This document shows positions 19,999 through 63,528 of a DNA stretch of 64,000 bases, in pieces. The notes under the pieces were generated by a model, which was not told the DNA's origin, ran no database searches, and saw only the letters and a list, made by a program, of their open reading frames with translations. The first letter of the stretch is position 1. Every line of letters begins with the position of its first letter. The stretch comes from a virus. Lineage: Duplodnaviria > Caudoviricetes. Location of the stretch: the IMG/VR virus record IMGVR_UViG_3300014204_000181, positions 4,804 through 68,803 of that record, one strand, 5' to 3'. A program made the translations under genes and the position numbers.

Positions 19999-20544
19999 AT
20001 GGCTTACAAGAAATTTGATGAAGCTACCAAAACGGTAGCGCAGTCGCCTCGCAAGGTAGGTGATGCCATTCCGGTTGAATCAGTCCGGAGGGCCATCCAG
20101 TCAATATCCAATAGAATCCTCGGTGGAACAGGCGGTACCGGTGCAACATCCGTTGTTTCCGCTTGCGGGACCGGTGCAACGGGAGGCCTCAAGTGGGGCA
20201 ATACCCTTCTGGCAGTCATCAACGGACGTTTCGGCACCCTGCTCTGTGCTGACAACCTCGAACTGCCCAAGGGCACCCAGTCCAAGAACACCTATGTAAA
20301 GTATCTCATTTCGGGTGGGTTCGGTACCGGTGGTACCGTTACTGCCGGCAACGAAGGCACTGGCTCAACAACGGCCCTGCTTCCGGATTGCCCTGATGGT
20401 CATGTGGCAGTGGGTTACATGGAGTACCAGGCGAATACCGGTTACGACTTTATCCGCACAAACCGCACTGTTACAGGCGGCGCCGCGGCTACTGCCGGAA
20501 CTGCGTCATTTGCCAATTTGATCCATATGCCCTACAGCGAATAA
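19999..20544 (+). CDS. Putative head decoration/virion protein, Gly-Thr-rich
   Basis: Follows the MCP; AGGAGG RBS; GGTGGTG, GTGGT and GTGSTT tracts. Confidence 0.65.
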   Translation: MAYKKFDEATKTVAQSPRKVGDAIPVESVRRAIQSISNRILGGTGGTGATSVVSACGTGATGGLKWGNTLLAVINGRFGTLLCADNLELPKGTQSKNTYVKYLISGGFGTGGTVTAGNEGTGSTTALLPDCPDGHVAVGYMEYQANTGYDFIRTNRTVTGGAAATAGTASFANLIHMPYSE

Positions 20545-20630
20545 CAATATATCCGTCGTCGTCCCCTTTAACCTGGCAGGGAGTCGTTTGTGGCTCCCTG
20601 CCCACAGCCTAAAATGAGGGAGAAAAAATC

Positions 20631-20984
20631 ATGGCGAAGAAAGATAAGGTACCTGAAACCCCGATGTTCGTCAGTGCACAGGGGCATATAAGGGACAGGA
20701 TCATCATTCATGAAAGCACGAAAATCCCGCGGGAAGGTATATTTCTTTCCCTGAACGGATTTGCGTTCCTTGCGAAAGCAGGGGTGGAGATTGATCTTCC
20801 GCGGCCGGTAAGGGAAATGTTGGATACCCGTATTGAAACTGAAACGTTTCAGGATGAAAACGGAGAAAGTCACGTACGGCACATTCCCCGAATTACCTAC
20901 ACCCTGGTAAAAGCCGGCGTTAATTTGCCGCCCCCGACAGATGACCAGGTGTCTGCAGAAGAAACAGCTGGCCAGGAAGGTTGA
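20631..20984 (+). CDS. Hypothetical virion-module protein
   Basis: 117 aa, GAGGGAG RBS. Confidence 0.7.
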   Translation: MAKKDKVPETPMFVSAQGHIRDRIIIHESTKIPREGIFLSLNGFAFLAKAGVEIDLPRPVREMLDTRIETETFQDENGESHVRHIPRITYTLVKAGVNLPPPTDDQVSAEETAGQEG

Positions 20985-22002: not shown

Positions 22003-22389
22003 ATGGCTGAAATAACAACCATTTTCATGCTCAAGAATACGGCCGTAGGTACTGGTTCTGCTGGCGGCACCAACTCTTCCGATATTATAGACCTGCGCGA
22101 TATTAACAGGAAAAACAATTTCACCTTGTCTTATCGTGTCGGCGCGGCTGGTGCAGTATCAACGGCAGCTACGGTTAATTTCAAATATCTTCTTTCCTAT
22201 ACGAAAGACGGAACGTTTGCGGCTCCTATTACCGGTGACAAAGGGACTATTGGCACCGCTGGATCGGGCGCGGCAGGATCATGCGGATTAATCGGGTTTA
22301 CCCCTGTCATTGCTCCTTTCATGAAAATCCTGGCCATTGCCGGTACCAGCGGGACAGCGTTAGTGAGTACGGAGTTACATGTACAGTAA
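22003..22389 (+). CDS. Putative virion structural protein (Gly-Thr motifs)
   Basis: 128 aa; GTGSAGGT, GTIGTAGSG, AGTSGTA. Confidence 0.7.
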   Translation: MAEITTIFMLKNTAVGTGSAGGTNSSDIIDLRDINRKNNFTLSYRVGAAGAVSTAATVNFKYLLSYTKDGTFAAPITGDKGTIGTAGSGAAGSCGLIGFTPVIAPFMKILAIAGTSGTALVSTELHVQ

Positions 22390-22401: not shown

Positions 22402-22779
22402 ATGGTTATCAGACAACTTTCGATTACGAGAGGGGATTCACAGACCTATAATCTGACCTTCAAGAAGGCAGACGGCACCCCTTACTGTATAAAAAACTGG
22501 GTGTTATTCTTTACAGTTAAGTCTAATTATGCCTTTCCAGATTCCAGCGCACTTTTTCAAAAAATCATAACTACTTTTGACGATACTACTTCTGGTACGT
22601 CCGGCTCTGCAAATATCAACGTGCTTCCGGAGGATACTGTTAACGCGACTCCTGGTGTGTATGATTACGACATTGCTGTGCGCACGTCGGACAATAAGAC
22701 GCTTACTGTGATGAAGGGCAAGTTAACTATTGAATATGACGTTACCAATTCTCCAGGAACGGCAGGTACGGCACCATGA
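22402..22779 (+). CDS. BppU-like / Ig-like tail attachment domain protein
   Basis: ITRGDSQTYNLTF...GVYDYDI...TVMKGKLTI; ends GTAGTAP. Confidence 0.65.
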   Translation: MVIRQLSITRGDSQTYNLTFKKADGTPYCIKNWVLFFTVKSNYAFPDSSALFQKIITTFDDTTSGTSGSANINVLPEDTVNATPGVYDYDIAVRTSDNKTLTVMKGKLTIEYDVTNSPGTAGTAP

Positions 22780-23654
22780 CGACTGAAACTAAAATTGATG
22801 TTATTATTTCTGCTGAACGTGCCATTGAAGTTATTTTTACTCCTGGAAGTCCTGCCGGATCATCCGGAACAAGTGGAACGTCGGGCCTTGATGGAACGTT
22901 CTATGGTTCTTCGGGCACTTCCGGTACCTCTGGCCTTGGTTCATCCGGAACGTCTGGTACTTCAGCAACATCTGTTACTTCGGGCACTTCCGGTACGTCA
23001 GGCACGGATGGTTCACACGGGACAAGCGGTACGAGCAGCATTAGCACTTCCGGTACTTCGGGCACTTCGGGCATTGGATCGCACGGAACATCCGGTACGT
23101 CTGCAACAGGAGTAACTTCCGGTACCAGCGGCACATCATCTACGGGAACGGGAAGCAGTGGTTCGAGTGGGTCAAGTGGCTTACCTGGGTCGTCAGGTTC
23201 TTCAGGGACGGCAGGTACCTCTGGAACGTCCGGAAGCAGAGGAAGCGATGGAACATCCGGCACTTCCGGCACTTCCGGTACCTCTGGAACGTCGAATACT
23301 GCTTCAGGATCGTCAGGCACTTCTGGTACTTCGGGAACGTCCAGCTCTGCAGGATCGCACGGAACGTCCGGCACAAGTGGTTCACCAGGTAGTCATGGTA
23401 CCAGTGGGACCTCGGGAAGCAGGGGAAGTGATGGCACGTCGGGCACCAGTGGTTCAGCCGGTAGCCATGGGTCCAGCGGCACTTCCGGAGCTGGCTCTTC
23501 TGGAACATCTGGAACATCGCCTTTAGGTTTTACATCAGGAACATCAGGCACGAATGGAAGTCACGGCACTTCTGGTACGTCAGGGACTGGCGGTAGCTCC
23601 GGATCATCAGGAACGAGTGTTTTGGATTTTCTTGCAGTACAGATATTCTCATAG
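22776..23654 (+). CDS. (Gly-Thr-Ser)n low-complexity fibre-like protein
   Basis: 292 aa, about 258 aa of G/S/T repeats between a short N-terminal strand and C-terminal VLDFLAVQIFS. Confidence 0.85.
   Translation: MTTETKIDVIISAERAIEVIFTPGSPAGSSGTSGTSGLDGTFYGSSGTSGTSGLGSSGTSGTSATSVTSGTSGTSGTDGSHGTSGTSSISTSGTSGTSGIGSHGTSGTSATGVTSGTSGTSSTGTGSSGSSGSSGLPGSSGSSGTAGTSGTSGSRGSDGTSGTSGTSGTSGTSNTASGSSGTSGTSGTSSSAGSHGTSGTSGSPGSHGTSGTSGSRGSDGTSGTSGSAGSHGSSGTSGAGSSGTSGTSPLGFTSGTSGTNGSHGTSGTSGTGGSSGSSGTSVLDFLAVQIFS
22845..23618 (+). repeat. Protein-level GTS/SGT repeat with degenerate codons
   Basis: Repeated GTSGTSG and SHGTSG units encoded by varied codons, so not a simple DNA microsatellite. Confidence 0.9.
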
Positions 23655-26529: not shown

Positions 26530-29500
26530 ATGTTTAAAGAAATTAAAGTACACGCTACAGCAAACGAACGAACGGGTTATGGTATCCATGCGTCAAGGTT
26601 TTTCCCTGCGCTGGACAGGATCGCACAGTCACATCCGGATGATTCCGGAACGGTGCACATTACGTTACTGGATGTTGTCACGGCATCGAGGCATGATCTT
26701 AAGTTTCATCCGTCGCCGTCGATCCTCTTTAATGTATGGGAATCAACCGAATATCCGGCGCCATTCCTGAAAAATCTGGAGAATTATGACCAGTTATGGG
26801 TACCGTCAGAATGGCAGCGGGCATGCTCTATCGCCCAGGGGATACCGGAAGAGGTTGTCAAGGTGGTGCCGGAAGGTGTCGATCCGGATACGTATAAGCC
26901 TGGCGAGTGGATTGAAGGAACGTCGGGTACCTCTGGCGGTACGTTCGACTTTGTAACTGTTGGCCAGTGGCAACCTCGTAAATCCACTCAGGAGATATGT
27001 GAGGCCTTCATTAAGGCATTCCCGCTTAAGGAGTATCCCAACGTTCGATTGCACCTGTCTGTTGATACCCTGTTTCCTTCTGATGAATATAAATCCACAG
27101 AAGAGAGGTTAAAAGCATATGGCCTGGAAGACCCGAGATTCGTTGTTGTTCACTTTGAAGAGAGAGAAGAATACGTGCGGCGGCTACAGAAATCCCATTG
27201 TTTTGTGTCGTGTGCGCGTTCGGAAGGATGGGGACTCCCCATCATCGAAGCAATGGCGTGCGGAATACCTACCATCGTGGCTGATTGGTCGGGCTCTACT
27301 GAATACGCCCGCGCTGAACATGGTATTAAGGTACGCATCAAGGAACTGATAAAGCCCTTCGGTATCTATCAGAACTGGGATGTTCCTGGCAAATGGTGCC
27401 AGCCGGATTACGACCACCTGGTTGAAGTAATGCAGGACGTCTATAAGAATTTCTACAAGTATAAGGACCAGGCGCTTAAGACTTCCGAATACATCCGGAA
27501 AGAATTTTCCTGGGATGCTGCAGCGAGAAAAGCCCATGCAGTTTTAGAAGAACTGCATGCAAAATGGAAATCGCTGGAAAGTGTTGCATTAGTGCAACAT
27601 GAGGGAAAATCTTCTGAGGATGATATCCGTTCGTACGCTGCAAAGCATGGGTTTGAAATTACCAGTATGCGCCCGCGGTCTGCTATTTTTACAGTGAATT
27701 GCTGGCCGAGCTCCCAGGAGAAAATGGATACCTTGATGGAAACGATTAAGCAGATCAAGGGTCTGGGGTATCCCGTTCTCGTATCTTCTCACTATCCGTT
27801 ACCTCCGGTGGTGACAGAGCTTGTGGATTATTACCTTTTCGAGAAGCGCGACATAATGAGCGGCGACGATAAACCCGTGTATTGGAGGACCCGTGTTGAC
27901 GGTAGCCAGGAAACTAAACAGGCCAGCGTTGAATACCAGGGCGTTGCCGCCCTAAACTGTTTTCGTAACTCTATTGATTTTTGTCGCGGCCGTTATGATT
28001 GGATATACGACATGAGCTCTGACATGGAGGTAGACCTGGAGCACTGGTTGCGACTGGTAACGTCCTCCACTAAACCCATGGTGTGTATTCCCTATGAAGG
28101 AAACAAAGACGGGATTGGTGGTGGTCTGTGGGCCGGCCGTACCGAAGTGCTGGATAAGGTAATCCCGCGCCTCAATTCCTGGAAAGAGTACGCTGATAAA
28201 TTCCCCGACCTGCGCTTTGTTGCTGAAAAATGGATATACGCCCATGTGGTGTCGACGGGTTATGACGTTCAGAACGAACTCGAGTGGATCAGTATTGAAA
28301 CCGTTAACCGGTTTGATAACGTCGATAGGGAAATATGGGATGATGACGATTTTGTATGTCATTTCATTGAAGGCCCGTTTCTGCAAATCCAGGGTATTTC
28401 CAGAAGGATGTATGATGTATCCTTCATCGATAACGATAATAATGATTCCGTCCTTTACGGACTCAAGCAGCAAGTGGGCTCCTGGAGCCGTCCGAATGCC
28501 AAATACTTCAAAAACTGGACGGTACAGGCGCACCTGGATGGTATCGAAAAGTATTCCCATAAACTGGACCTCAAGGGCAAAAACGTGCTTATTTCCTTTG
28601 GTTCTAAAGCCCTGGGAGATACGATAGCCTGGATGCCCTATGTTGAGGAATTTCGAAAGAAGCACGGTTGTAATATCTATGCATCCGGCTGGTGGCAGGA
28701 AATTTTTGACTATCCGGAAATTACATATATAAAACCAGGAACGAAGATAGAGAATTGCTATGCTTCCTATGCGGTAGGCTGTTTCGATAATCAGCCGGAT
28801 ATGAACCCAAAAAACTGGAGGGAAGTACCATTACAGAAGGTTGCTGCGGATATCTTGGGTATTGAGTATGTACCTATTCGCGCCAACCTCAAAGTGAAGC
28901 CGCATAATAATAAGTATAAATATGTATGCTTCTCCGAGTTTTCTACCATGCGCGGCAAGATATGGAATCGTCCTGGTGCCTGGCAAAAGATTGTCGATTA
29001 CCTTAACGATCATGGATATGACTGTATTTCCATTGCGAACGAACGTTCTATTCTTGCCAATATCAAGCAGCATAGCGGCCAGCCGATTCAGAACACCATT
29101 GCTGACATTTCCGGCTGTTCTTTCTATATCGGCCTCAATCATGGCCCTGCATGGTTATCTCTGGCGCTGGACAAACCGACGATTATGATTACCGGTATGT
29201 CCGAACCCTGGAACGATTTCCCGAATCCGTACCGTTTATCCGTCGATATCTGCCGGCCAGGGTGCTTTAATGATCCGTCCTTACCTATTCAACGTGGCTG
29301 GGAATGGTGTCCGAGAAACAAGGATTATGCGTGTACCCGCGACGTTACGGAAGAAATGGTCATAAACGTAATAGATAAGTTGATAAAGGAGGACACATGC
29401 CAGTTGCCATCACGAAACGCAAAGGTGGTGGATATCAAGTCAGTACCCCCAACGGTGTCCACGCAAAAAACACAACCCTCGAAAAAGCAAAGGCGCAAGA

Positions 29501-30862: not shown

Positions 30863-31312
30863 ATGGCACTAAGAGTATCTACCGGATTTAGAAACGGGCT
30901 TTTAACCGGAAATAATTTCTATACCATGCTCAACCAGGGCATTGTGAGATTGTATTCCGGAACAATGGGCACCAATCCTGATACCGGCGTCGCGGCTACG
31001 GCCCTGGTGACATTCGAGCCATTATACTTTCAGACCGCCGCCACTGCAGGAACGATTTTCAATGGTACGAATGCGGTAAACGGTACCGGAGCGGTGGACG
31101 GTACGGCTGGATATTTCCGATTAAGCGAGTACGCCGACGATCCCACTGTGACGTCAACCACAGTCGCCCGTATAGACGGTGTGGTAAATACCAGCACGGG
31201 AGATATGATTATGGGTGACAATTTGATTTCCATTGGTCAGGTGTTGAGTTTGCAGATCGCCAGGTTTGGATTTCCGGTATTAGCAGGTACTTCCGGAACG
31301 TCAGGGACTTAA
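30863..31312 (+). CDS. Small virion protein, paralog 1 (ends GTSGTSGT)
   Basis: MALRVSTGFRN...LYSG...GTAGYFR...RIDG. Confidence 0.75.
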   Translation: MALRVSTGFRNGLLTGNNFYTMLNQGIVRLYSGTMGTNPDTGVAATALVTFEPLYFQTAATAGTIFNGTNAVNGTGAVDGTAGYFRLSEYADDPTVTSTTVARIDGVVNTSTGDMIMGDNLISIGQVLSLQIARFGFPVLAGTSGTSGT

Positions 31313-31335
31313 TATAAACAAAGGAGGATATTATC

Positions 31336-31782
31336 ATGGCTTTCAGAATTTCACAGGGATTGAGAAATAAGATGTTGGGTACTGGCGGCTTGAAGGAACT
31401 GCTTGATGGTGGTTGCATTCGCATCTTTTCCGGCGCCCAGCCTTTAACTCCGGAAACAGCAGAAGCGGGTGTGTTGATTTCCACCATTAAGACTTCTTCC
31501 GGAACCGGTGGCCTCATATGGGGTACGGCAGCGAGTGCGGCAATTTCGAAAAGTGCCGATCCGTGGTCTGGAACGTGCGGTACCGAAGGCATTGCTGGCT
31601 GGTTCAGGTATTATGACGTTGCTGACTTCTACGGAGCTGATGCGGCAGGTACCGCTGTAAGGTTTGACGGTGACGTGGGAGTAACCACTGGCGACCTCAA
31701 ATTAACCAGTACAACGGTTAAAGTAAGTGCTCCGGTGGTCATTGATACCTGCCAGTTTAGCATTGCGCAGAATCAGAGTTAA
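31336..31782 (+). CDS. Small virion protein, paralog 2
   Basis: MAFRISQGLRN...IFSG.QP...GIAGWFR...RFDG. Confidence 0.75.
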   Translation: MAFRISQGLRNKMLGTGGLKELLDGGCIRIFSGAQPLTPETAEAGVLISTIKTSSGTGGLIWGTAASAAISKSADPWSGTCGTEGIAGWFRYYDVADFYGADAAGTAVRFDGDVGVTTGDLKLTSTTVKVSAPVVIDTCQFSIAQNQS

Positions 31783-31793
31783 GGGAGGTAGCT

Positions 31794-32192
31794 ATGGCTA
31801 TCAAAGTAAGCGTACCTGCGTGTAATGCAATCGTTGAAGCGTTGACGACACAGTTTTGCACTGTCGATGCTTTCTGCCGCGTGTATGCAGGAACACAGCC
31901 TGGAACGGCTGGTGGTACTGTAGGTGATACCCTTATTACGGAAATTGCCGGAGTATCCTGGAACAGTGCTGTCGGTGGTACAACGAGTCTTGCTGGATCA
32001 AGTTGGGGCAGTGCGGCGACAGACGGGACTGCAGGATGGGCGCGAATATTGAACAGTACCGATGAAACTATGTGCATTGACGGAAATTGCGGTACTGCGG
32101 CCACCTGTGACTTCGTTATAGATAAGGAAGTCGTTACCGTTGGCGATGATATGTACCTCACGGCGGCAGATATAATCATGCCTGAAAGTTAA
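31794..32192 (+). CDS. Small virion protein, paralog 3
   Basis: MAIKVS...VYAGTQP...GTAGWAR...CIDG. Confidence 0.72.
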   Translation: MAIKVSVPACNAIVEALTTQFCTVDAFCRVYAGTQPGTAGGTVGDTLITEIAGVSWNSAVGGTTSLAGSSWGSAATDGTAGWARILNSTDETMCIDGNCGTAATCDFVIDKEVVTVGDDMYLTAADIIMPES

Positions 32193-32205: not shown

Positions 32206-33156
32206 ATGCCCGCAATACTTCCAGCCCTTCAATTTCACGGGGAACTTACTGACGCTACCGAAGCGCCTACATCCGTAATCATTATGGGTGTGCTTCCATC
32301 TATATTCATGGAGCTTGCCCAGGGAAGCGTTCTCGATGTTGAAATAAACAATTTCACTTTTTCTGCGACGGGTTATCTTGGCGTAAACGGCAGCATTCCG
32401 GACTTGAATATGTCCTTTGGGCTTACTATGTCCGGCTCCCAGGCGTTGTCTGGTACCCTGGAAGTTGCCGCCCTCAAGATGGCTTTTACCGGCACTGGCA
32501 ATGTCGGCCAGATAAGTACCTTCAACAAATCCATTGCGTTTGCTTTTACTGCTTCCGGCAATGTCGGCAATATCGGAACGATGGACTTGGTGTTCAATCA
32601 CGTCCGTTTGTCTTCGGCTTCCGCGTATATTTCGCCCATTGGCAATCTGCAGCTTACCCTGGGCCTTGAATTTTCAGCTACCGGCAGCAGCACGATATTC
32701 AAAAGCATGGTGCTCAATCTTAAGAATAATGCTCTTACCGAATATCTTTCTTACGTTTTTAACTCCATGTGTTCCTTCAATGGCAAACTGTACGGTGCGG
32801 CCAGTAATGGAATCTATGAGCTCACGGGCGAAGAAGATGCTGGAAGTGATATCCCCTGGCGTTTCCGTACCGGCAAGCTGGACCTTGAAACGGACAACGT
32901 TAAGAAATCCCTTCGATACGCCTGGCTGGGTTACAAGGCCTCTGGTGAGCTTACCCTGTCCGTATTCGACCAGGACGGCAACCAGTATGATTACATAGTA
33001 GAAAATATTCGTAATACGGATGGTGGCATACGCGTAAAGACTGGTAAGGGCATTCGGTCCCGTTACGTGGAGCTCCAGCTTGCCAACATAGACAATGAAA
33101 CGATTTCCCTTGATAAAATGAGGATTTTTACTGAACTTACAGGGAAGAAACGTTAA
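32206..33156 (+). CDS. Putative tail structural protein
   Basis: 316 aa; C-terminal YVFNSMCSFNGKLYGAASNGIYEL...GKGIRSRY domain. Confidence 0.65.
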   Translation: MPAILPALQFHGELTDATEAPTSVIIMGVLPSIFMELAQGSVLDVEINNFTFSATGYLGVNGSIPDLNMSFGLTMSGSQALSGTLEVAALKMAFTGTGNVGQISTFNKSIAFAFTASGNVGNIGTMDLVFNHVRLSSASAYISPIGNLQLTLGLEFSATGSSTIFKSMVLNLKNNALTEYLSYVFNSMCSFNGKLYGAASNGIYELTGEEDAGSDIPWRFRTGKLDLETDNVKKSLRYAWLGYKASGELTLSVFDQDGNQYDYIVENIRNTDGGIRVKTGKGIRSRYVELQLANIDNETISLDKMRIFTELTGKKR

Positions 33157-50969: not shown

Positions 50970-51065
50970 TTAATGATTAGGCATTATACTTGTTCCTATT
51001 GCGATCCCGATACACAGCCACATCCACCAGGGACCAACGAACGCTTGAGCAATAAATGCTTCCAT
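50970..51065 (-). CDS. 31-aa hydrophobic micro-protein
   Basis: MEAFIAQAFVGPWWMWLCIGIAIGTSIMPNH; GGAGG RBS; TAATG overlap with the methyltransferase stop. Confidence 0.5.
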   Translation of the reverse strand: MEAFIAQAFVGPWWMWLCIGIAIGTSIMPNH

Positions 51066-52273
51066 TATATTACCTCCAATTCCGGCATGGGAATAATAAA
51101 CTTCCCCTTCCATTTCTTGATGTAGCTTAACTGTTTGGTAATTTCCCGCCGCAGGTTCCAGGGCAGTATCAAAACGTAATCCGGCGCAATCTGGCATAAT
51201 TCATCTTCTGTAGTAATCCGGATATGGCTACCAGGTAAATACTTGCCCTGCTTCTGTGGTGAGATATCCACGACAAACGGAATCGTATCAGACTTGATTC
51301 CGCAGTAATTAAGTAAGGTATTCCCTTTGGCCGCGGCTCCGTAAGCAACCACTACCTTATCGCAAGGTATGTCATAAAGACGCTGCATCAGTCTTCTCCG
51401 GATACCTTCAACCTTGTTCTGCATACCTTCGTAGTATTCAATAAAGTCCATGCCCAGGGTTTTTTCTTTCTGCAAAACCTCTTCCACGTACTTTGTAACT
51501 TTTCGTTTCCCACCTTCATGCTGTGCATATATCCGTAACGATCCACCATGGGTAAACAACTCGTCGACGTCAAACACCTGCATACCGTGAAACTCGAACA
51601 TGTTCATTACAACGCCCAGTGAATAATAAAAGTAATGCTCATGGTAAATGGTATCAAACAGGCAGTCTTCCATCAAGCGCAACAAGTGCGGAAACTCCAT
51701 CGTAATAATTCCGGACGGCTTAAGGCATATCCGCATGCCCTTGATGAAGTCGTTGATATTAGGCACGTGAGCGAAAACATTGATCCCCAGGACAAGATCG
51801 AAGAACGGCAGCGTCTTAGCCAGTTTGGATGTAAAGAATTTCGGGATAGCGAATATCCCCTTCTTGTTTGCTTCGGCTACTGCCTGGGCCGCTGGATCAA
51901 TGCCAATACAGGGTATCCGTCGTTCAACAAAGTGCTGCAGGAGATACCCGTCGTTGGACCCTATCTCGAGCACGTTACTTTCAATATTCAGCCCGTACTT
52001 ATGGATCATCAGCTGAACGTATTTCTTCGCATGCTCTACCCATGACGATGAATGCGAAGAATGATAAGCATAATTATTGACGAAGATTTCCGCGGCCGGT
52101 TTGTATTCCGGCACCTGGACAAGCATGCATTTAGTGCATACGAATACTTTCAGCGGGTAGTATATTTCCGCATCTTCCAACTGCTCTCGAGTAAGCAGTG
52201 AATTGGATGGCGGCTGGTGCCCCAGGTCAAGCATTTCAAAGGTTAACTCTGCTCCGCAAAATTTACAATTCAC
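51065..52273 (-). CDS. NDP-hexose C-methyltransferase (Zn-binding + SAM + C-terminal domains)
   Basis: CKFC...LDLGHQPPSN...CTKCMLVQ, EIGSNDG, IYHEHY, YGAAAKGNTLLNYCG. Confidence 0.9.
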   Translation of the reverse strand: MNCKFCGAELTFEMLDLGHQPPSNSLLTREQLEDAEIYYPLKVFVCTKCMLVQVPEYKPAAEIFVNNYAYHSSHSSSWVEHAKKYVQLMIHKYGLNIESNVLEIGSNDGYLLQHFVERRIPCIGIDPAAQAVAEANKKGIFAIPKFFTSKLAKTLPFFDLVLGINVFAHVPNINDFIKGMRICLKPSGIITMEFPHLLRLMEDCLFDTIYHEHYFYYSLGVVMNMFEFHGMQVFDVDELFTHGGSLRIYAQHEGGKRKVTKYVEEVLQKEKTLGMDFIEYYEGMQNKVEGIRRRLMQRLYDIPCDKVVVAYGAAAKGNTLLNYCGIKSDTIPFVVDISPQKQGKYLPGSHIRITTEDELCQIAPDYVLILPWNLRREITKQLSYIKKWKGKFIIPMPELEVI

Positions 52274-52282: not shown

Positions 52283-53308
52283 CTAACCCTGATTACAGTA
52301 ACTGTTTATCTGCTCGTTCGTCAACACCATGCCGTCATAGAAGTGCTTATACCAGTACATTGCTGTCCGGACGGCCGTTCTCATGGTCCATTGCGGCGTC
52401 CATCCCAGCTTCTTTCTGGCTTCCGTACTGTCGATCTTAAGTAGCTGCACCATACTCGGGTGCGTTTCCTGTTCTTTGACGATAAACTTGACTTCCGGCC
52501 ATACCTGCTGGGCTTCCTTGAGCACATCCAGGACGGTCATTTCACCAACGGGCCCGAAATTCCAATTCCTGGCAATCTCCTGCTCTCCGTTCATTAATCT
52601 GGCTCCCAGCATCAGGTATCCGCACAGGGGTTCAAGCACATGCTGCCAGGGACGGGTAGCGTTCGGCGTATGGATTTCCACTTCCTGGCCGGCAATCGTC
52701 GCCCGCACAATATCCGGAATCAGGCGTGCATACGCCCAGTCACCGCCGCCGATAACATTACCCGCTCGAGCGGTAGCAATCATGGGAAGAAACTGTGAGC
52801 GATAGCATTCGATAACATGCTCAACGCATACCTTTGATGCCGAATACGGGTCCAGGCCGCCCAGCTCGTCGTTTTCCCTGTAGCCCCAGCCCCATTCCTT
52901 GTTGGCATATACCTTGTCCGTCGTAATCATAACAATCACGGGCGGCTTTTCGACGTTCCGGCATGCCTCGAGCAGATGAACGGCGCCCATAACATTGCTT
53001 TCGAATGTTTCCAGGGGTTCATGGAACGTTCGTGCTACAATGGCGTTTGCCGCAAGGTGAAAGACGATATCCGGCTTCCAGTGCTCGATCATGTTATAAT
53101 TCTCCTGGATATTGCCGTGCTTTTCAGTCACCCTGCTACACAGGCCCAGGATATCGTAATGGTTCGGCTCCGTGTGCGGTTTCCTGGACAGGCCATAGAC
53201 GTCGGCGCCCAGGTTGACTAACCACTGGCATAGCCAGCTCCCCTTGAATCCCGTGTGTCCTGTTACCAATACCTTCTTGTCCTTGTACGCGTTTACCAGA
53301 TTTTCCAT
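52283..53308 (-). CDS. rfbG: CDP-glucose 4,6-dehydratase
   Basis: VLVTGHTGFKGSWL, ITTDKVY, DPYSASK, RAGNVIGGGDW, RPWQHVLEPL. Confidence 0.95.
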   Translation of the reverse strand: MENLVNAYKDKKVLVTGHTGFKGSWLCQWLVNLGADVYGLSRKPHTEPNHYDILGLCSRVTEKHGNIQENYNMIEHWKPDIVFHLAANAIVARTFHEPLETFESNVMGAVHLLEACRNVEKPPVIVMITTDKVYANKEWGWGYRENDELGGLDPYSASKVCVEHVIECYRSQFLPMIATARAGNVIGGGDWAYARLIPDIVRATIAGQEVEIHTPNATRPWQHVLEPLCGYLMLGARLMNGEQEIARNWNFGPVGEMTVLDVLKEAQQVWPEVKFIVKEQETHPSMVQLLKIDSTEARKKLGWTPQWTMRTAVRTAMYWYKHFYDGMVLTNEQINSYCNQG

Positions 53309-54075
53309 TCAGCTCTCCCTTCTCTCCATAGTTTGTTAAGCTCATGCATTTCGGGTAATGTGTCCATGCATCCCCAGTAACCGGCATGCGGGTGTACCAT
53401 CAACTGCCCGTCAGCGGCCAGCTTGTCCAGCACGCCGATTTCCAGGTCACAATCGTCGCCATTGTGCAGATAATCGAATATCTTCTGATTGAATACGAAG
53501 AAGCCCCCGTTAACCATCTGCTGGTTGTTCTCTGGCTTTTCGGAAAACGAAGTCACCATCCAGCTGTCATGTTTGATTTCACCAAATCGCGGCTTCGGGT
53601 GAATGCCGGTAACTGTAGCAATCTTACCATGATGTAAGTGAAAGTCCAGTAATCGCTGCATATTGACGTTACCAACACCGTCGCCATATGTGACAAAGAA
53701 GTTTTCCGCGCATGATACATACTTCCTGATCCTGTTCAACCTGGCGCCCTTTAACGTCTTCTCGCCGGTATCGGACAGAGTTACTTTCCATTCCGGATTG
53801 TCTTCCTTCCACCAGTGCTCGTAAAACTGGCCCTTCTCTACGGTAATATCATTGTTGATTACCGCGTAGTGAGCGAAGTAATTCTTGAATACCTCCTGCT
53901 TGTAGCCCAATGCCAGGACAAAATCACGTACACCGTAATGGTAATACAGCCGCATAATGTGCCATACCATGGGCTTGCCGCCAATCGGGATCATGGGTTT
54001 GGGAACAAACTCCGTCGCTTCCTGGAGCCTGGTACCGGTACCGCCGCATAGGATAACTGCCGGAATGTCTTTCAC
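53293..54075 (-). CDS. rfbF: Glucose-1-phosphate cytidylyltransferase
   Basis: VILCGGTGTRL, PKPMIPIGG, TYGDGV, VNGGFFVF, GYWGCMDT; adjacent to rfbG. Confidence 0.95.
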   Translation of the reverse strand: MKDIPAVILCGGTGTRLQEATEFVPKPMIPIGGKPMVWHIMRLYYHYGVRDFVLALGYKQEVFKNYFAHYAVINNDITVEKGQFYEHWWKEDNPEWKVTLSDTGEKTLKGARLNRIRKYVSCAENFFVTYGDGVGNVNMQRLLDFHLHHGKIATVTGIHPKPRFGEIKHDSWMVTSFSEKPENNQQMVNGGFFVFNQKIFDYLHNGDDCDLEIGVLDKLAADGQLMVHPHAGYWGCMDTLPEMHELNKLWREGRAEWKIW

Positions 54076-57219: not shown

Positions 57220-57432
57220 TTATGATAATGGTCCTTCTTTCATGATGTACCTTATGCTGTGCGGAAGAATAAAGAAACGGGCGTCACTCTTTTTGGTAAA
57301 GACAAGATCATCATTTACCCAAAATCCGTTTATGAAATCAAGGATACTTTCGCCCCAGGCATGACGGTGCTTTTCTTCAAAAACATACTCGCACCGGTAC
57401 CTCAACTTCTTCATGCTAACCTCCGTAGCCAC
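57220..57432 (-). CDS. Hypothetical protein
   Basis: 70 aa, overlaps the end of the CmcI-like gene. Confidence 0.5.
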   Translation of the reverse strand: MATEVSMKKLRYRCEYVFEEKHRHAWGESILDFINGFWVNDDLVFTKKSDARFFILPHSIRYIMKEGPLS

Positions 57433-58172
57433 CCGCCTGGCGCCGCGGTAATCATTGCCCGTTGTTCAATTTCCCTGTCGACAACAAACCTCTTATCGCG
57501 TGACATAAACTCCTGGACCGCCGTATAGGGATTATCCCCAGGGCCCCAGGGCCTATCTGCCGGCTTCTCTTTCATCATCAGCTCAATAGCGGTATCGAAG
57601 ACGATCATGTAACTGCCAGGAGAAACAAAACACGAATACAGGGCCAGCTCCTGCATGACGTGACTGTGGGTATGGTTGGAGTCCAGGCACACCATTACCG
57701 TCTGCAGGATATTCTTTCCAATAACTGTCCCTATTAAATCTATGACGGTGGTTGCTATACTATCGCCGGTAACGGGCGTGATCCGGCCTGACAGTGGATG
57801 CCGCTCCAGGGCCCTCCGGTTATGGTAACGCAAATCATTGTCAACAGTGATTACGCGCCCCTTCCCCATAGCTTCCAGGATCGACGCATAAAATACCGCC
57901 GTGCCGCCGAATGCCGTACCCGTTTCAATAATCAGGTCCGGCTCCAACTTCCATATAAGCTCCTGGAGCACCATCAAGTCTGTGGGATACTGGATGATCG
58001 GCCGGCCCATCCAGGTATAGCGCTTGGTGAAATCAATCTCCACCAGGTATTCCGTGAAGGTACGGATTATCCCCCGATCTGCCCATGCTTGGTTAATCGA
58101 CGTTTTCTGTTCGCTTTCCTTTATGTATTTTTCTACATATTCGCATTTCTTCCAGTCCGGTACCTTTATCAT
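57411..58172 (-). CDS. CmcI-family (cephalosporin hydroxylase-like / sugar O-methyltransferase) protein
   Basis: YTWMGRPIIQYPTD, EPDLIIETGTAFGG, CLDSNHTHSHVMQEL, GDNPYTAV. Confidence 0.9.
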   Translation of the reverse strand: MIKVPDWKKCEYVEKYIKESEQKTSINQAWADRGIIRTFTEYLVEIDFTKRYTWMGRPIIQYPTDLMVLQELIWKLEPDLIIETGTAFGGTAVFYASILEAMGKGRVITVDNDLRYHNRRALERHPLSGRITPVTGDSIATTVIDLIGTVIGKNILQTVMVCLDSNHTHSHVMQELALYSCFVSPGSYMIVFDTAIELMMKEKPADRPWGPGDNPYTAVQEFMSRDKRFVVDREIEQRAMITAAPGGWLRRLA

Positions 58173-59740
58173 ATCCTCACCCCCAGTATATCCGCTCGTT
58201 TTCTCCAGAGCTCACTCTTCCCCAGGATGCTCAAGAATCGCCCATACTCGTAATTCCCCGTCCGGTACAGTTTCTTTTTGCACAGGGACATACAGTAATA
58301 AGCGAAGGCGTGATCCTTGTACCGCTGCAGCACGTCCTCGAAACACTTGAGCGCCGTCGTATAATCCCCCATGGCCATGCGTTGATTATGCAGGAAATTT
58401 ACATCCAGGTTCATCAAATAAACTTCCTCTTCCAACTCTGCAGGATCAACCCCAGGGACATTGATAATATACTTCTTGTCCACAATGTCCTCGATCCGCT
58501 GTTTCTTGATCCATCCGTTGGCCAGGCACCGGTCATACAGCGCACTGCCTCTTACCGGTGTCGCCATGTTGAGCCCTGCCCAGTCCAGTTTTATCTCGCG
58601 CAGGAAGTCCAGGGTTTCTTCCCGATGTTCGGGCGTTTCTCCAGGCATGCCCATGACGAAGAATCCATGGATAAAGAAGTTGTATTGCCGGAGCATATCC
58701 ACCACCGGCTTTACCTGCTCGAGCTTGAGCGGTTTCCGGATCAATTCCTTGAGCACGTACGGACTACCGTTTTCAATGGCCAGGTAGATTGTATCCATGC
58801 CGGCTTCCTGCATGAGAAAGCATAGCTCTTCGTCCATGTAGGCAACAGACACGCCGTTAGGCAACTCCACCCTGATATGAAACTTCGCCAGCTCGCGGAA
58901 GAGGTCCTTTGCCCTGTCAGTGTCCAGCAATATTTGGTCGTCGTAGATCGTGAGCACTTCCATTCCGTAATGATGAACCAGGTAACCAACATGATCCATT
59001 ATGTTATATATACTGGCCTGTCTTACCTGCTTCCCGTGTATCATCGAATTGCTGCAGAAGGTGCACTGAAACGGGCAGCCCCTACTGGTCATAAGGAAAA
59101 ATTGCCGCTTGTTCTGGTTGTCGATGAATGGTGAAAAGGCCTGTTTCATCTTGTACGCATCAACGTCGACGTAGCCATAAGCAAGATCAATCACGTCATT
59201 GAGATTATAGACAAAGGATGGCTTAACGGGCCGCCTGTTTCCCAGTGATTCTCGAGTTACCCAGGAGTAATGATGATCCAACGTGTATTGCCATTCCGAC
59301 GAATACTTTATCAAATCCTGTATGGGTAATTCACCTTCACCAAAACAAACCGCATCCAGCTCCGGCTGATCCTTAAGGATTTCCTCGTATGAATAAGACG
59401 CGGCGGCGCCCCCCAGGAGCGTGACTGCTTTGCAATTCATATCCTTGACAAGCCCCAGTAGCCGGCGCAGGTGCTTATATGAATTGTCGAACATCATGGA
59501 AAACCCGACGATATCCGGCTGATAGGTTTTCATTAATTCCTTTATCGTCATTCCATAAGACGCCGGATCGGGATAGTTGTTCAGATCAACCACCAGAAAA
59601 TTAGCGTTGGCATCGTTATAGCTGACAAGGGACAGGACGCCATACGGGAAGGCGTGATAACTCCGAATCTTCGCGCCGGTACTGTCCGTTTCCACCATGT
59701 ACGGCAATACAACCATGAGAATTGTCGGGTTATCCCGCAT
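58169..59740 (-). CDS. B12-binding radical SAM protein
   Basis: PYGVLSL, PDIVGFS, GEGE, TSRGCPFQCTFC, FFVMGMPGET. Confidence 0.9.
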   Translation of the reverse strand: MRDNPTILMVVLPYMVETDSTGAKIRSYHAFPYGVLSLVSYNDANANFLVVDLNNYPDPASYGMTIKELMKTYQPDIVGFSMMFDNSYKHLRRLLGLVKDMNCKAVTLLGGAAASYSYEEILKDQPELDAVCFGEGELPIQDLIKYSSEWQYTLDHHYSWVTRESLGNRRPVKPSFVYNLNDVIDLAYGYVDVDAYKMKQAFSPFIDNQNKRQFFLMTSRGCPFQCTFCSNSMIHGKQVRQASIYNIMDHVGYLVHHYGMEVLTIYDDQILLDTDRAKDLFRELAKFHIRVELPNGVSVAYMDEELCFLMQEAGMDTIYLAIENGSPYVLKELIRKPLKLEQVKPVVDMLRQYNFFIHGFFVMGMPGETPEHREETLDFLREIKLDWAGLNMATPVRGSALYDRCLANGWIKKQRIEDIVDKKYIINVPGVDPAELEEEVYLMNLDVNFLHNQRMAMGDYTTALKCFEDVLQRYKDHAFAYYCMSLCKKKLYRTGNYEYGRFLSILGKSELWRKRADILGVRI

Positions 59741-60779
59741 AGAACATTACCTCCTTGAATATCTTGTGCCAGTGTTCGATCATTATGTTCATATCGTACA
59801 AGGAATTGGCGTGCATCCTGGCGCGATAGGAATGATCCATCCTTTTGTCAGGCATTCTGTGAAGCATATTGACATAATGTTGCATTTCCTCAATATTCTT
59901 ACACAGGAATCCTGTTCCTTGAGATATGATTAACTGTTCAGCACCATTGTCAAACGCAACCGGAACAACACCCGCGGCCATCGCTTCCCCCAGGACTTGT
60001 TCACATGTACCATAATGATCGGAACGCAGGGGATACAGGAAAACATCCAGGCTGGCCATGAAGCCAGGAACATCGTCAATATGTCCCAGGAAATCAATGT
60101 ACGGATATTCCGTTTTTGAGGGGATAAATGCCGGCTCACCACCGACGTAGAAATTCGCTTCCGGTATAACGTCATGAATGCAAGCACAAATTTTCAGGAA
60201 ATCGCCGCTCATTTTTTTATAGTCAACCGTTCCGAGATACCCGATATTAAATCCCATGGTACTGTCGCGTTTAATATTAATGAAATCCTCGATACCACCA
60301 GTAGACCAGACATTATCCAGGTGCACATGCCGTTTGTTAATAATATCCGCGACAACTATCGGATAATTATACTGTTCTATCCCTCTATCCTTGAAAATGA
60401 TCGGTGACGTGGCAACGAAGTAATCCGGCCGGAAAAAATCATCAACGGGAATCTGGAAATTCTTATGGCACCAGTAAATCAGGTTCTTTTTAGTATGCCG
60501 GTAATTCTCCATGAAATTAACCAGCATGCGGTGGTCCCAATAATGGACAAGCACGATATCATATGCGTGAATGATTTTGTAGAAGTCGTCCAGCAGGTGA
60601 TCTTTCATAACGTTCTCGAATGCTGGAATACCGTTTTTCCAAATAATCTCTTTTGCCCAGTCATTGATATAATCCAGTACCGCGATAACGTGATGACATT
60701 CCTGGTCACGTTTAACCCAGTTAAGTAACACCCTGCCGACGCCGCCGCCCAGGTGTGGTGTAATGTGTAATATTTTCAT
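59730..60779 (-). CDS. Glycosyltransferase family 4
   Basis: MKILHITPHLGGG, FLGHIDDVPGFMASLDVF, GEAMAAGVVPV. Confidence 0.88.
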   Translation of the reverse strand: MKILHITPHLGGGVGRVLLNWVKRDQECHHVIAVLDYINDWAKEIIWKNGIPAFENVMKDHLLDDFYKIIHAYDIVLVHYWDHRMLVNFMENYRHTKKNLIYWCHKNFQIPVDDFFRPDYFVATSPIIFKDRGIEQYNYPIVVADIINKRHVHLDNVWSTGGIEDFINIKRDSTMGFNIGYLGTVDYKKMSGDFLKICACIHDVIPEANFYVGGEPAFIPSKTEYPYIDFLGHIDDVPGFMASLDVFLYPLRSDHYGTCEQVLGEAMAAGVVPVAFDNGAEQLIISQGTGFLCKNIEEMQHYVNMLHRMPDKRMDHSYRARMHANSLYDMNIMIEHWHKIFKEVMFYAG

Positions 60780-63271
60780 CCGTCCTCCTTCGTTATGTTG
60801 ATTTCTCCTAAATATTTTGCCTCTTTCCCATAGACCTTAATGGCCCCTTCCCCTCGTGTGATTACCACTCCCAGCTTTCCCAGCTCGAACGCTGGATGAT
60901 TGTAGTCAAGCTGATACTTTTCCCTGATAAGATAGCATAAATAAATATGCAGTTGATTTCTGATCTGGTTCCAGTGTTCGCCCCAGCCGATACCTTCTAT
61001 CTCTTTCCATTCCTTGTTGTAGTCTTTACAGTTAAGTATTTCCTCTTCGCGTTCTGTAGAAATAAGTTTAGCTATATTTACCCATATGTCTATCCACACA
61101 AGCTCCCAGGTCTGCACGCCCATCTGTGCACCTATCCGAGCTCCTATATGGCTCCCGATTTTTCTGTCGATTGTTTTTTCTACTTCACATAATATTAAAA
61201 ACAATTTCCATGGATCGGGCATTTCTGTAGCCGTCAGCAATCCCTCGTCCTTCCATAATGGCCGCGCTTCTTTGATCTGGATTGCCGGCTGAATGTTTTT
61301 CCCCAGTATTCGGCTATCACAGTAATCACAGGCGTTCATGCTCTTTTTCGAATGAATATATTCCCTGATCGTTCCACCTGGGACGGTTACAATATCTAAT
61401 CCCGCTTCTTCGAGCCCCAGTCGATAGGCACTGGCTGCAAAAGGACACCGGAACAACTTCCCGTCTGTCATGGTAACCAGGTTCGTGGCGACACAGTTTT
61501 TAAACAGCTTGTTATTTTCTTCCGCAGAACGATTATTCTTACGAATATTCGCACAGTCGATCCAGGTATCAACATTGACAACCTTGTGCCATATTTTACG
61601 ATACTTGAAGTTATAAATAAGCTGTTCAATCTTCTTTGACAATGGCCCATAATTGGAAATCACAACAACAACTTTTCGGTGAATTAGGGCATCAATGTTC
61701 TTCGGCATAATCGTTCCGTTCGTGTAAACGACTACCCGCTTGATCTTAGCCTGGCTTGTCGCATATTGCACGATCTTCTCCCATTCCGGATGCATGAATG
61801 CGTCACCGCCGAGTATTCTGGCTTCCATTATTTCATCCACATTCAAAAGCAGGGAATGCAGGTCGCTTATTACTTCAAAAATGTTGATATCCCGAGGCTG
61901 TTGGAAATATTGCATGAGGTTAGAACAGTCCCGACACTTAAGCGAACACCGTTCAGTTATCATTATGTCCAGGCTACGAAGGAAGGTATAATCCTTCTTC
62001 ATGAATGCCTGGTGAGCGATTATGCATGATTCCGTCTGATAAAATTCCTCATTAATAATAAAGTCCGTATTGAATTGGCGTGTCTGCACTCCTTCAAGGA
62101 TAAGGCCCCCAGGTATCCAGTTATCGACATTTTGTTCATCCAGGGTTTCTACTACATCCTTTATTGAAAGCACAGAAATGATAAAGGTGCCAGGTAACCA
62201 CTGAACAGGGATTGCGGAAGATTCATAGACTGGCCGATCACAGCACAATTTCCCTTCTGCTTTATTTTTATCGTAATCTATAAATCCGATAATCTCTATT
62301 CCATGGAGCTTACAAACCTCAAAAATCCGTTGGCCAACAACGTCCGTACCGCATATAATTATCGGATAGTCACTTCTATTCAACATGTCTATTATAACAT
62401 CTTTCCTGCTGTGCATCCGGTAACTGTACACATTATCCATCTGGACCCCTTTTTCAGCAAACTCCTTTACCGTACGACTCAGGTTATCAATGAAGCGATC
62501 AACTGTCCGAAGAAAGCCGGTAGCTATGTTGTCATTATTGAAAAAATAGACATTCAACGCGTTTCGCAAGGGCTCAAGGCTGTGTGAATTATTATTAATC
62601 GCCGTAATACTGGAAGACTTATTATGCATCTGAAAACAGTATATCGGCTCGTCAATCACAGAAACACCGCTGGCAATAGTTAAGCACCCGATATTGAACA
62701 CGCCATCTTCTCCTACCTTTGTATTAATAAAAAAAAGGTGGTTATCATCGAGAAACTTTTTCTCGTACAGTCTTCCCCAGCAATGAGATACAAGATAGCA
62801 GTCATTGGTTAGCATATATTGCCGTACGCACAGAGAAATGCCTCCTTTATCCAGGAGCAGGCTTTTGATGTTGCCCATTCTGCAAGGTGGCGTATTTTTT
62901 ATAATGTATCCGGACGGTGATTGCCTGAATGCACTACCAACGACTATCGGAGCCCTGGACACTTCATAATCATCACGTAATGTCTGCAGTGCATGAGGCA
63001 GGATGTAATCATCAGCATCCAGAAAGAATATCAAGGACCCGCGGGCCTTCGCCATTCCGAAATTACGCGCTGCACCGACACCCATATTCGATTGCGTGAG
63101 AATCGTATAGTTTCGTTTCTTTGCCTTGCTTATTTCGGCAATACTGTTGTCCGTCGATCCATCGTCGACAATAATCAGCTCGAAATTAGCATATGTCTGT
63201 GCCATCACGCTCTGGATAGCGCGGCCGATAAACTTCTCCGCATTATATACCGGAATAATTACACTTATCAT
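60776..63271 (-). CDS. GT2 glycosyltransferase - Rossmann-like - radical SAM fusion protein
   Basis: MISVIIPVYN, VDDGSTD, FLDADD; IIICGTDVVG; ITERCSLKCRDC, GGDAFMHP. True start taken as ATG 63271 (ATGA overlap with the SemiSWEET stop). Confidence 0.82.
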   Translation of the reverse strand: MISVIIPVYNAEKFIGRAIQSVMAQTYANFELIIVDDGSTDNSIAEISKAKKRNYTILTQSNMGVGAARNFGMAKARGSLIFFLDADDYILPHALQTLRDDYEVSRAPIVVGSAFRQSPSGYIIKNTPPCRMGNIKSLLLDKGGISLCVRQYMLTNDCYLVSHCWGRLYEKKFLDDNHLFFINTKVGEDGVFNIGCLTIASGVSVIDEPIYCFQMHNKSSSITAINNNSHSLEPLRNALNVYFFNNDNIATGFLRTVDRFIDNLSRTVKEFAEKGVQMDNVYSYRMHSRKDVIIDMLNRSDYPIIICGTDVVGQRIFEVCKLHGIEIIGFIDYDKNKAEGKLCCDRPVYESSAIPVQWLPGTFIISVLSIKDVVETLDEQNVDNWIPGGLILEGVQTRQFNTDFIINEEFYQTESCIIAHQAFMKKDYTFLRSLDIMITERCSLKCRDCSNLMQYFQQPRDINIFEVISDLHSLLLNVDEIMEARILGGDAFMHPEWEKIVQYATSQAKIKRVVVYTNGTIMPKNIDALIHRKVVVVISNYGPLSKKIEQLIYNFKYRKIWHKVVNVDTWIDCANIRKNNRSAEENNKLFKNCVATNLVTMTDGKLFRCPFAASAYRLGLEEAGLDIVTVPGGTIREYIHSKKSMNACDYCDSRILGKNIQPAIQIKEARPLWKDEGLLTATEMPDPWKLFLILCEVEKTIDRKIGSHIGARIGAQMGVQTWELVWIDIWVNIAKLISTEREEEILNCKDYNKEWKEIEGIGWGEHWNQIRNQLHIYLCYLIREKYQLDYNHPAFELGKLGVVITRGEGAIKVYGKEAKYLGEINITKEDG

Positions 63272-63528
63272 TTCATCCCCCATTTCACCTTGACGTAGAC
63301 CATCCCCGCTCCCAACACCAGTGCTATGCTGTTCCAGATAATTACTGCCATCAATCCGTACATGATTCCATATACCAGCCAGAAGCCGATACCTACAGTA
63401 AAAAGCACACTGAACGTCAAGCTCATGTCCCGTGCACTTTTTGATTTGAAGGATTTCCATACTTGAGGGATCATGCTGACTGTCGTCAATAATCCACCGA
63501 TGAACCCAATGACTTCCTTGATATCCAT
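63268..63528 (-). CDS. SemiSWEET (PQ-loop) sugar transporter
   Basis: 86 aa, three TM helices, TTVSMIPQVWKSFKSKSARDMS, WLVYG, WNSI. Confidence 0.9.
   Translation of the reverse strand: MDIKEVIGFIGGLLTTVSMIPQVWKSFKSKSARDMSLTFSVLFTVGIGFWLVYGIMYGLMAVIIWNSIALVLGAGMVYVKVKWGMK

Follow-up and report, generated by a model that had tools for sequence, protein, structure and literature searches.

A TibC-like glycosyltransferase fusion and a collagen-like repeat protein as candidate partners in a predicted O-glycosylation of a phage particle

Introduction

What could be the function, among the late genes of a short-tailed phage, of an enzyme resembling TibC and Aah, the protein O-glycosyltransferases that act on bacterial autotransporters? 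The question is raised by the window analysed here, a 64-kb stretch of DNA comprising bases 4804-68803 of a 68,803-bp IMG/VR record with direct terminal repeats (IMGVR_UViG_3300014204_000181), in which an open reading frame (ORF) located at 26530-29562 on the plus strand follows the lysis cassette (24688-26194) and precedes virion genes located from 29925 onward; unless stated otherwise, positions given below are those of the window. An initial annotation, made from the letters of the DNA, had described this ORF as a 1010-amino-acid (aa) GT4 + Aah/TibC-like enzyme within the structural operon, and had assigned it to one candidate virion glycosylation system together with Gly-rich acceptors and a separate island of sugar genes.

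The best explanation of the locus as a whole, to which we assign a probability of about 0.6, is that the phage sugar-coats its own particle by means of this enzyme, which would glycosylate phage structural proteins. The reading of the enzyme as writer and of the repeat-containing proteins as acceptors is well supported by comparative genomics, from which we infer all its elements, namely the transfer of sugar, the residues modified, the sugar used and the role of the coat in shielding, stability or adsorption.

Architecture and relationships of the enzyme

The description of the ORF as a GT4 + TibC-like enzyme of the structural operon is borne out by Pfam, by the match to the TibC structure (PDB 4RAP), by Foldseek and by the gene neighbours. 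However, the single 1010-aa ORF contains three glycosyltransferase domains (GT4, GT-A and TibC/Aah-like), the GT-A fold at aa 345-630 having been overlooked. The N-terminal GT4 domain, of the GT-B type (aa ~1-344; 26530..27561, +), is matched by Pfam PF00534 (Glycos_transf_1, 2.9e-15, aa 138-263) and displays an EX7E-type motif in which R230, E232 and G233 are invariant and E240 is nearly invariant in 52 homologues; its Foldseek matches are GlgM, PBCV B736L, SenB and PimB'. The middle domain (27562..28419, +) is blank in Pfam and was recognised by Foldseek from its AlphaFold2 model (predicted local distance difference test, pLDDT, 79), with 391 PDB matches at E≤0.001, the top-ranked of which are mostly GT-A glycosyltransferases (blood-group GTA/GTB, glycogenin, the GT domain of the collagen-glycosylating LH3, SpsA); a D-x-E-x-D motif in this domain is invariant in the family alignment.

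The third domain, a predicted TibC/Aah-like (BAHT) protein O-glycosyltransferase (28417..29394, +), is identified by PDB 4RAP, TIGR04414 and Foldseek. Its sequence matches 4RAP over aa 630-955 with E 4.4e-37, and the profile of 52 sequences matches TibC with E 7.7e-54. When the AlphaFold model of the enzyme built from the 52-sequence alignment (mean pLDDT 86) was submitted to Foldseek, TibC ranked first, followed by GT4 enzymes, and the TibC fold was matched including its N-terminal β-barrel and its atypical GT-B catalytic domain (4RAP, E 4.5e-31, target template-modelling score 0.84, root-mean-square deviation 2.3 Å) in an alignment spanning ~375 of 381-390 residues; the structural resemblance to TibC that the initial annotation had left to be checked is thus that of the top match.

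The residues of TibC that are named as essential, with their roles, in the paper describing its structure are Asp110, Thr226, Lys230, Trp305, Cys339/342/358/370 and Arg286 (PMC4358343). Mapped through the 4RAP alignment, the catalytic base Asp110 corresponds to D697, the phosphate contacts Thr226 and Lys230 to T806 and K810, the sugar contact Trp305 to W875, and Cys339, 342, 358 and 370 of the iron finger (1Fe-0S) to C908, C912, C927 and C935, all of them invariant in the 52 homologues; the first Cys pair of this predicted metal site is spaced as C-x3-C vis-à-vis C-x2-C in TibC. Sequence and modelled fold therefore indicate that the domain is a real member of the TibC superfamily, and because the catalytic residues named for TibC are kept it is probably active. 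No autotransporter is present in the phage genome, the neighbours of the gene being virion genes and a collagen-like repeat protein.

Homologues of the fusion number more than 364, many of them lying on contigs of 65-76 kb, so that the enzyme can be regarded as the product of a core gene of the clade; the order lysis genes, enzyme, tail/virion genes is kept in nine IMG/VR loci and in three longer relatives. One homologue (L010:1187-5314, on an IMG/VR contig of 72,922 bp) reaches 1375 aa, the ~365-aa insertion being an intein (Pfam Intein_splicing, PF14890). The present enzyme carries at aa 129-136 (26914-26937), in a variable linker of the GT4 domain, a GTSGTSGG stretch that is lacking in homologues and that may be a self-modification site or incidental.

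The collagen-like repeat protein and its association with TibC-like genes

The main candidate acceptor is a 292-aa collagen-like (Gly-Thr-Ser)n fibre protein encoded at 22776..23654 (+), which matches Pfam Collagen (PF01391, 67 bits for a gathering score of 27.2) and the PHROG collagen-like tail/tail-fibre families. It is composed of 27% Gly, 31% Ser and 20% Thr, its Gly-X-Y runs are uninterrupted for 15, 16 and 9 triplets, and its prolines, only five in 292 aa, are atypically few for a collagen-like protein. The DNA repeats of the gene are limited to 9-nt units in 2-3 copies, with no long tandem repeat; the repeat is therefore kept at the level of the peptide, and DNA slippage as its source was rejected. 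The syntenic fibre proteins of relatives share the short N-terminal strand, have a stalk of the GSSGTSG type that varies widely in length and usually end in a C-terminal domain, which the 22776 fibre lacks. The fibre gene is translationally coupled to the gene of a 125-aa virion-block protein (phrog_1084; 22402..22779, +), the stop of which overlaps the fibre start (ATGA), an arrangement kept in relatives; in the family of this protein two motifs are kept, TTSGTSG internally and PGTAGTA as a C-terminal tag (six homologues, 53-62% identity).

The co-occurrence of Aah/TibC-like domains and repeat proteins across phages, proposed as a check together with the initial annotation, turned out to be strong and specific. 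A pattern scan with the TibC-domain alignment located TibC-like domains on at least 564 confirmed viral contigs, and the neighbours of the best 80 of these were analysed, including 64 distant loci having 35-46% identity and lying on contigs of 5-548 kb. A repeat ORF, defined by the presence of at least six G[TS][STAG]G[TS] motifs, was found within 10 kb of the TibC-like gene in 39 of the 64 distant loci, as opposed to none of 95 random viral loci (784 kb; Fisher p 2e-20), which were picked by an arbitrary 14-mer and are on average shorter than the TibC-like loci, and to a single one of 77 sugar C-methyltransferase loci with the same flank size (1.25 Mb; Fisher p 1e-16). None of the latter 77 viral loci carries a TibC-like domain. 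Grouping of the loci by enzyme domain at 70% identity gives 38 clusters, 27 of which show the association; at 50% identity, 8 of 10 do so. The repeat ORFs are often giant (up to 3086 aa and 531 motifs) and close to the TibC-like gene, the median gap being 1.3 kb, with twelve gaps not exceeding 200 bp.

Among GenBank phages, the cultured Microcystis phage Mel-JY01 (PP395634.1) encodes a 1226-aa "FkbM" protein terminating in a TibC-like domain, with an 805-aa GTS/GSS collagen-like open frame 1.7 kb upstream of the gene and a second one just downstream, and a similar TibC-like/collagen-like pairing is found in a 735-kb uncultured phage. The 805-aa frame of Mel-JY01 (L025:635-3052, +) has a C-terminal domain; at this place the record annotates a minus-strand coding sequence at 739-2298 and a short plus-strand one at 2519-3052, and the wrong strand may have been annotated in the deposited record.

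Further partners of the TibC-like genes recur at the same 64 distant loci. Indeed, within 10 kb homologues of FkbM (12), of the GT4 domain (11) and of the GT-A domain (10) were found, none of them at the 95 random loci, whence a recurrent module consisting of TibC-like, GT4, GT-A and FkbM. The present genome encodes an FkbM-family methyltransferase as well (11560..12234, +; Pfam PF05050, 5.7e-13), conserved in three relatives (G001-G003).

Short Gly-Thr tags on the virion proteins

Besides the (Gly-Thr-Ser)n protein, which stands, about ten virion proteins had initially been credited with GT(A/S/Y)GT motifs; the figure of ten holds for the looser motif GT-x-GT, but only six proteins satisfy the strict one. 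With the repeat protein set aside, the late block contains 22 GT-x-GT motifs for 0.44 expected from composition-preserving shuffles, spread over nine proteins, eight of the virion block and the fusion enzyme, whereas the remaining 15,841 residues of the genome contain a single one for 0.19 expected. The relatives G001-G003 contain 13, 23 and 15, for 0.5-1.0 expected, and all of these lie in homologues of the late-block (virion) proteins.

Ten tags (0.11 expected) occur in a 623-aa virion-block protein (33156..35027, +), two in a 181-aa Gly/Thr-rich protein encoded directly after the major capsid gene (19999..20544, +) and two in a 128-aa virion-block protein (22003..22389, +). In the case of three paralogous ~148-aa virion structural proteins (30863..32192, +; PHROG 3758, "virion structural protein"), the first two have GT-x-GT in variable loops and end in a GTSGTSGT tail and the third is devoid of the motif, the alignment of the paralogue family confining the tags to variable loops and one C-terminus.

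The sugar island

The second part of the system originally proposed is an island of minus-strand genes listed as RfbF, RfbG, a C-methyltransferase, a CmcI-like protein, two B12 radical SAM proteins, a GT4, a GT2-radical SAM fusion and SemiSWEET, and all these annotations hold. RfbF, a glucose-1-phosphate cytidylyltransferase (53293..54075), scores marginally under the TIGR02623 cutoff (289.3 bits for 300) and RfbG, a CDP-glucose 4,6-dehydratase (52283..53308), well above that of TIGR02622 (418.6 bits for 278); the two genes overlap and, as in known CDP-6-deoxyhexose pathways, their products would give CDP-4-keto-6-deoxyglucose. The NDP-hexose C-methyltransferase (51065..52273), with its zinc-binding, SAM and C-terminal domains (PF08484 1.5e-55, PF08421 1.6e-20), shares with TylC3-type enzymes the domains typical of 4-keto-sugar C-methylation; neither a 4-ketoreductase nor an epimerase was recognised. 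The two B12-binding radical SAM enzymes (PF04055 + PF02310) are located at 48914..50158, this one being 60% identical in G001 and G002, and at 58169..59740, for which the best NCBIfam models are class-B methyltransferases, all below cutoff. The remaining genes encode the CmcI/rhamnosyl O-methyltransferase-like protein (57411..58172; PF04989, 4.5e-75), the stand-alone GT4 glycosyltransferase (59730..60779; PF13692, 1.2e-13) and the GT2 glycosyltransferase fused to a radical SAM domain (60776..63271, the start probably being at 63271; PF00535 8e-32, PF04055 1.9e-6, just under cutoff). Directly upstream of this fusion gene is that of the 86-aa SemiSWEET-type (PQ-loop) protein (63268..63528; PQ-loop 1.4e-9, MtN3_slv 2.6e-5, hydrophobic segments), the sole membrane protein of the island. 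A DUF5131 protein of the phage Gp37/Gp68 type (56523-57200, -), with a weak match to "radical SAM mobile pair protein A", also lies in the island; no homologue of it was found in G001 or G002.

Compared with known CDP-deoxysugar clusters, the island, located in a lytic-type phage genome, is distinguished by the addition of two B12 radical SAM enzymes, the CmcI-like protein, the GT2-radical SAM fusion and SemiSWEET. Each of the five near-complete clade genomes has it beside the same genes, RfbG being found in all four others, and its core is 46-60% identical in G001 and G002. The same leftward module continues across the genome end, outside the window, with a 323-aa radical SAM/SPASM protein (L002; genome 1608-2579, -), which is joined there by a conserved 263-aa protein; in G001 both genes are contiguous with the island.

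No transmembrane segment was detected in any glycosyltransferase or island enzyme, the GT2-radical SAM fusion included, and no flippase, polymerase, initiating phosphoglycosyl transferase or ligase was found among the scanned proteins. Soluble enzymes with neither flippase nor polymerase fit a soluble acceptor in the cytoplasm; action on host lipid-linked intermediates is also compatible with them.

Proposed mechanism and alternative explanations

The 1010-aa product of this late gene, a soluble enzyme, would act in the cytoplasm of the infected cell on phage structural proteins. Its TibC-like domain would most likely place the first sugar on Ser/Thr hydroxyls of Gly-(Thr/Ser)-X triplets, which are found both in the (GTS)n fibre encoded at 22776-23654 and in the GT(A/S/Y/G)GT tags that some nine further products of the late block bear in loops and at C-termini. 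Subsequent elongation of the glycan would fall to the GT-A and GT4 domains, and its methylation perhaps to the FkbM-type methyltransferase; both the fibre and the surface of the particle would thus end up glycosylated. The island, for its part, would yield a 6-deoxyhexose activated by CDP and methylated on both C and O, and the weakest step of the whole scheme is the arrival of this sugar on the virion, which we consider doubtful. An even more speculative and rather unlikely extension is a general, sequon-directed O-glycosylation in which a single three-domain enzyme would read a minimal GT-x-GT tag, brought by evolution into loops and C-termini of about ten virion proteins and present also in the fibre, and the glycan would contain the multiply methylated 6-deoxyhexose made by the island in a B12 radical SAM-dependent manner.

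Several observations weigh against these proposals. The scores of the TibC-like domain with TIGR04414 (194.3 and 197.2 bits) are just under the equivalog cutoff of 200, so that by the NCBI rule its sequence would class it as a clear homologue and not as an equivalog. At the position of Arg286, which in TibC contacts adenine N1 and confers ADP-sugar specificity, the phage domain has Thr856, a residue kept almost throughout the clade and replaced by Ile, Arg or Leu in three other phage homologues, and the β-hairpin thumb that builds the TibC dodecamer is shortened by two deletions that amount to ~9 residues and include the position of Phe265; for these two reasons, the nucleotide-sugar donor and the quaternary structure may differ from those of TibC. 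The known BAHT acceptors are β-helical autotransporter repeats and not collagen-like triplets. The 64 distant loci, drawn from the best matches among at least 564, are not a random sample of the viral TibC-like loci, and the lineages entering the co-occurrence counts are not fully independent. As to the short tags, the ordinary neighbours of TibC-like genes in other phages are not enriched in GT-x-GT (6.5 per 100,000 residues for 2.6-4.7 in controls), the rate in the late block of the present phage being ~376; such tags are therefore not supported as a general trait of TibC-bearing phages, their dispersed occurrence is specific to the present clade and it is from this clade that the idea of tags as sequons derives. 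Finally, the 10-kb flanks of the 64 distant TibC loci contain no homologue of the island genes, which are thus not supported as general TibC neighbours.

The latter finding bears directly on the unity of the system initially proposed, of which writer and acceptors are upheld by homology, fold and co-occurrence while the sugar supply is not established. Indeed, it is a serious possibility, to which we give somewhat less than even odds, that two unrelated systems coexist, the enzyme using host nucleotide sugars such as ADP-heptose and the island sugar going to another acceptor, for instance a host envelope glycan intermediate or a small molecule. The absence of the island from loci where FkbM, GT4 and GT-A partners recur is what such a separation would entail, and C-methyltransferase/RfbF/RfbG/CmcI modules with 38-45% identity do exist in other viral contigs (L214, L215) with neither a TibC-like gene nor a repeat ORF nearby, in keeping with the 77 C-methyltransferase loci mentioned above; furthermore, the island lies on the strand opposite to the structural genes and has a GT4 and a GT2 of its own, the nearest NCBIfam models of which act on lipid-linked glycans. 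On the other hand, the conservation of the island beside the same genes in every near-complete genome of the clade is not readily accounted for by a separate system, nor is the lack of an initiating phosphoglycosyl transferase, flippase, polymerase, ligase or membrane-embedded island enzyme; a three-domain enzyme, moreover, requires donors for three transfers, and flanks of 10 kb are blind to genes located elsewhere in large phage genomes.

The repeats and tags might instead be purely structural, the 292-aa protein forming a collagen-like triple helix and perhaps zipping onto the tags of the virion proteins, with the TibC-like enzyme having some other target. The Pfam Collagen match and the in-phase Gly-X-Y runs of the fibre, its lack of the globular C-terminal domain seen in syntenic relatives and the fact that the tags themselves amount to two or three Gly-X-Y triplets would all suit such a role; yet, as is established for collagen peptides, a stable triple helix requires more than two or three triplets, X and Y positions occupied by Ser/Thr alone are unusual for stable collagen while offering a maximum of hydroxyl acceptors, and there would be no explanation for why TibC-like genes are so strongly and specifically associated with repeats across unrelated phages, all of which makes this explanation improbable. 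Least of all do we favour the transfer of the sugars to phage DNA, as glycosylated bases evading host restriction. Radical SAM enzymes are indeed found in some DNA hypermodification clusters. DNA is also a frequent target of phage glycosyltransferases (reviewed in PMC12619734). However, enzymes of the TibC type are O-glycosyltransferases of proteins, it is repeat proteins and not replication genes with which they are associated, and neither a thymidylate-synthase-like hydroxymethylase nor any other base-modifying enzyme was found among the scanned proteins; we hold this last explanation to be very improbable. Glycosylation of the particle by the three-domain enzyme thus continues to be the preferred explanation.

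The phage and its host

The genes of the phage run rightward from ~4011 of the genome to 48919 of the window and leftward from the right end. Pfam and PHROG searches identified the terminase (13386), portal (15030), major capsid (18891) and SU10-type adaptor (20981) genes, all on the plus strand, and the PHROG families "head closure Hc3" and "virion structural protein" were matched among the virion genes from 29925 onward; no sheath gene and no tape-measure gene recognisable by PHROG or Pfam was found among the scanned proteins. This gene content is that of a short-tailed phage, which is uncultured and whose nearest cultured relative, Pseudomonas phage Rollin, is distant (35% portal identity). 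Scans for promoters and terminators, aimed at the timing of the fusion enzyme and of the island, gave counts not above those of shuffles.

The lysis cassette (24688-26194, +) consists of a holin-like protein, an unassigned 174-aa ORF in the endolysin position and a pair of overlapping i-spanin/o-spanin-like ORFs (25606-26194, +), the first with an N-terminal transmembrane segment and the second with a LISC lipobox; the sequence of this spanin-like pair suggests a Gram-negative host. A search for the host in species-representative genomes returned 13 loci only, mostly on contigs of metagenome-assembled genomes (MAGs) resembling mis-binned phage, and gave no host call. Contigs of the clade are binned in MAGs labelled Nitrosotalea and Dehalococcoidia (L200/L201) and Methanoregula (P0033), one of them, in a Nitrosotalea MAG, being 68,332 bp long; their placement in archaeal and bacterial MAGs looks like mis-binning and not like a host signal.

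Two further genes deserve mention. The 3685-aa ORF at 37862-48919 (+), 47% identical in G001, carries a Strawberry-notch-type helicase (Pfam AAA_34 + Helicase_C_4), a match on account of which an N4-like virion RNA polymerase was rejected, and is probably a polyvalent ejected anti-restriction protein. Directly preceding the terminase gene, a 259-aa Tad2-like (Thoeris anti-defence 2) protein is encoded at 12244-13023 (+), the C-terminal part of which matches Pfam with 8.6e-22 and is preceded by an unassigned N-terminal domain.

Relation to known systems and biological meaning

The closest known system is that of TibC/Aah (BAHT; TIGR04414; PDB 4RAP, 4RB4; PMC4358343), which shares with the phage domain the fold, the catalytic Asp, the Thr/Lys and Trp contacts and the four-Cys finger, and in which a Gly-rich repeat protein encoded nearby is hyper-O-glycosylated on Ser/Thr in the cytoplasm, as is predicted for the phage enzyme. 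Unlike in these systems, the phage domain comes after GT4 and GT-A domains in a single polypeptide; furthermore, whereas the acceptor of TibC/Aah is the passenger of an adjacent autotransporter and the donor ADP-heptose, the neighbours in the phage are a collagen-like Gly-Thr-Ser fibre and virion proteins.

Mycobacteriophages offer a precedent for the modification of the particle, since, according to Freeman et al. (2023) as cited in PMC12619734, their own glycosyltransferases decorate phage structural proteins at the C-termini of capsid and tail-tube subunits. These C-terminal glycans, shown by experiment, parallel the C-terminal GT tags seen here, where glycosylation is a prediction; their hosts are actinobacteria as opposed to the presumed Gram-negative host of the present phage, the enzyme family is another one and no collagen-like repeat acceptor is described there. 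The likeness extends further to the Gly-X-Thr surface filaments of Bacillus anthracis BclA (GPT repeats) and to the collagen-like fibrils of giant viruses, which are O-glycosylated with unusual methylated deoxy sugars. These differ in having unrelated glycosyltransferases and proline-containing repeats and in belonging to spores or eukaryotic viruses instead of tailed phages.

To our knowledge, some mycobacteriophages are the only phages with experimentally demonstrated glycosylation of the particle, which in their case alters immune recognition, and the TibC/BAHT family was until now known only from E. coli-type adhesin systems; a full-text literature search found no paper tying TibC/BAHT enzymes to phage particles or to collagen-like repeats. 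Relative to published work, the novelty would thus be the glycosylation of phage virions by a BAHT-family enzyme acting on a new class of acceptor.

If the tags did function as sequons, tag and writer would constitute a portable pair for cytoplasmic protein glycosylation, and the short conserved GT-x-GT tags could serve as a minimal acceptor for cytoplasmic glyco-engineering. For phage biology, the consequences would be broader. If the interpretation is correct, a second, unrelated enzyme family glycosylates phage particles in at least 564 viral contigs, ranging from 40-kb podoviruses to 500-kb phages, its preferred substrate being proline-free collagen-like Gly-Ser/Thr fibres, whereby the BAHT enzymes would gain a new acceptor class. 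Fibres of this kind would then have to be read as glycoprotein brushes and not as bare collagen, with a bearing on adsorption, particle stability and antigenicity.

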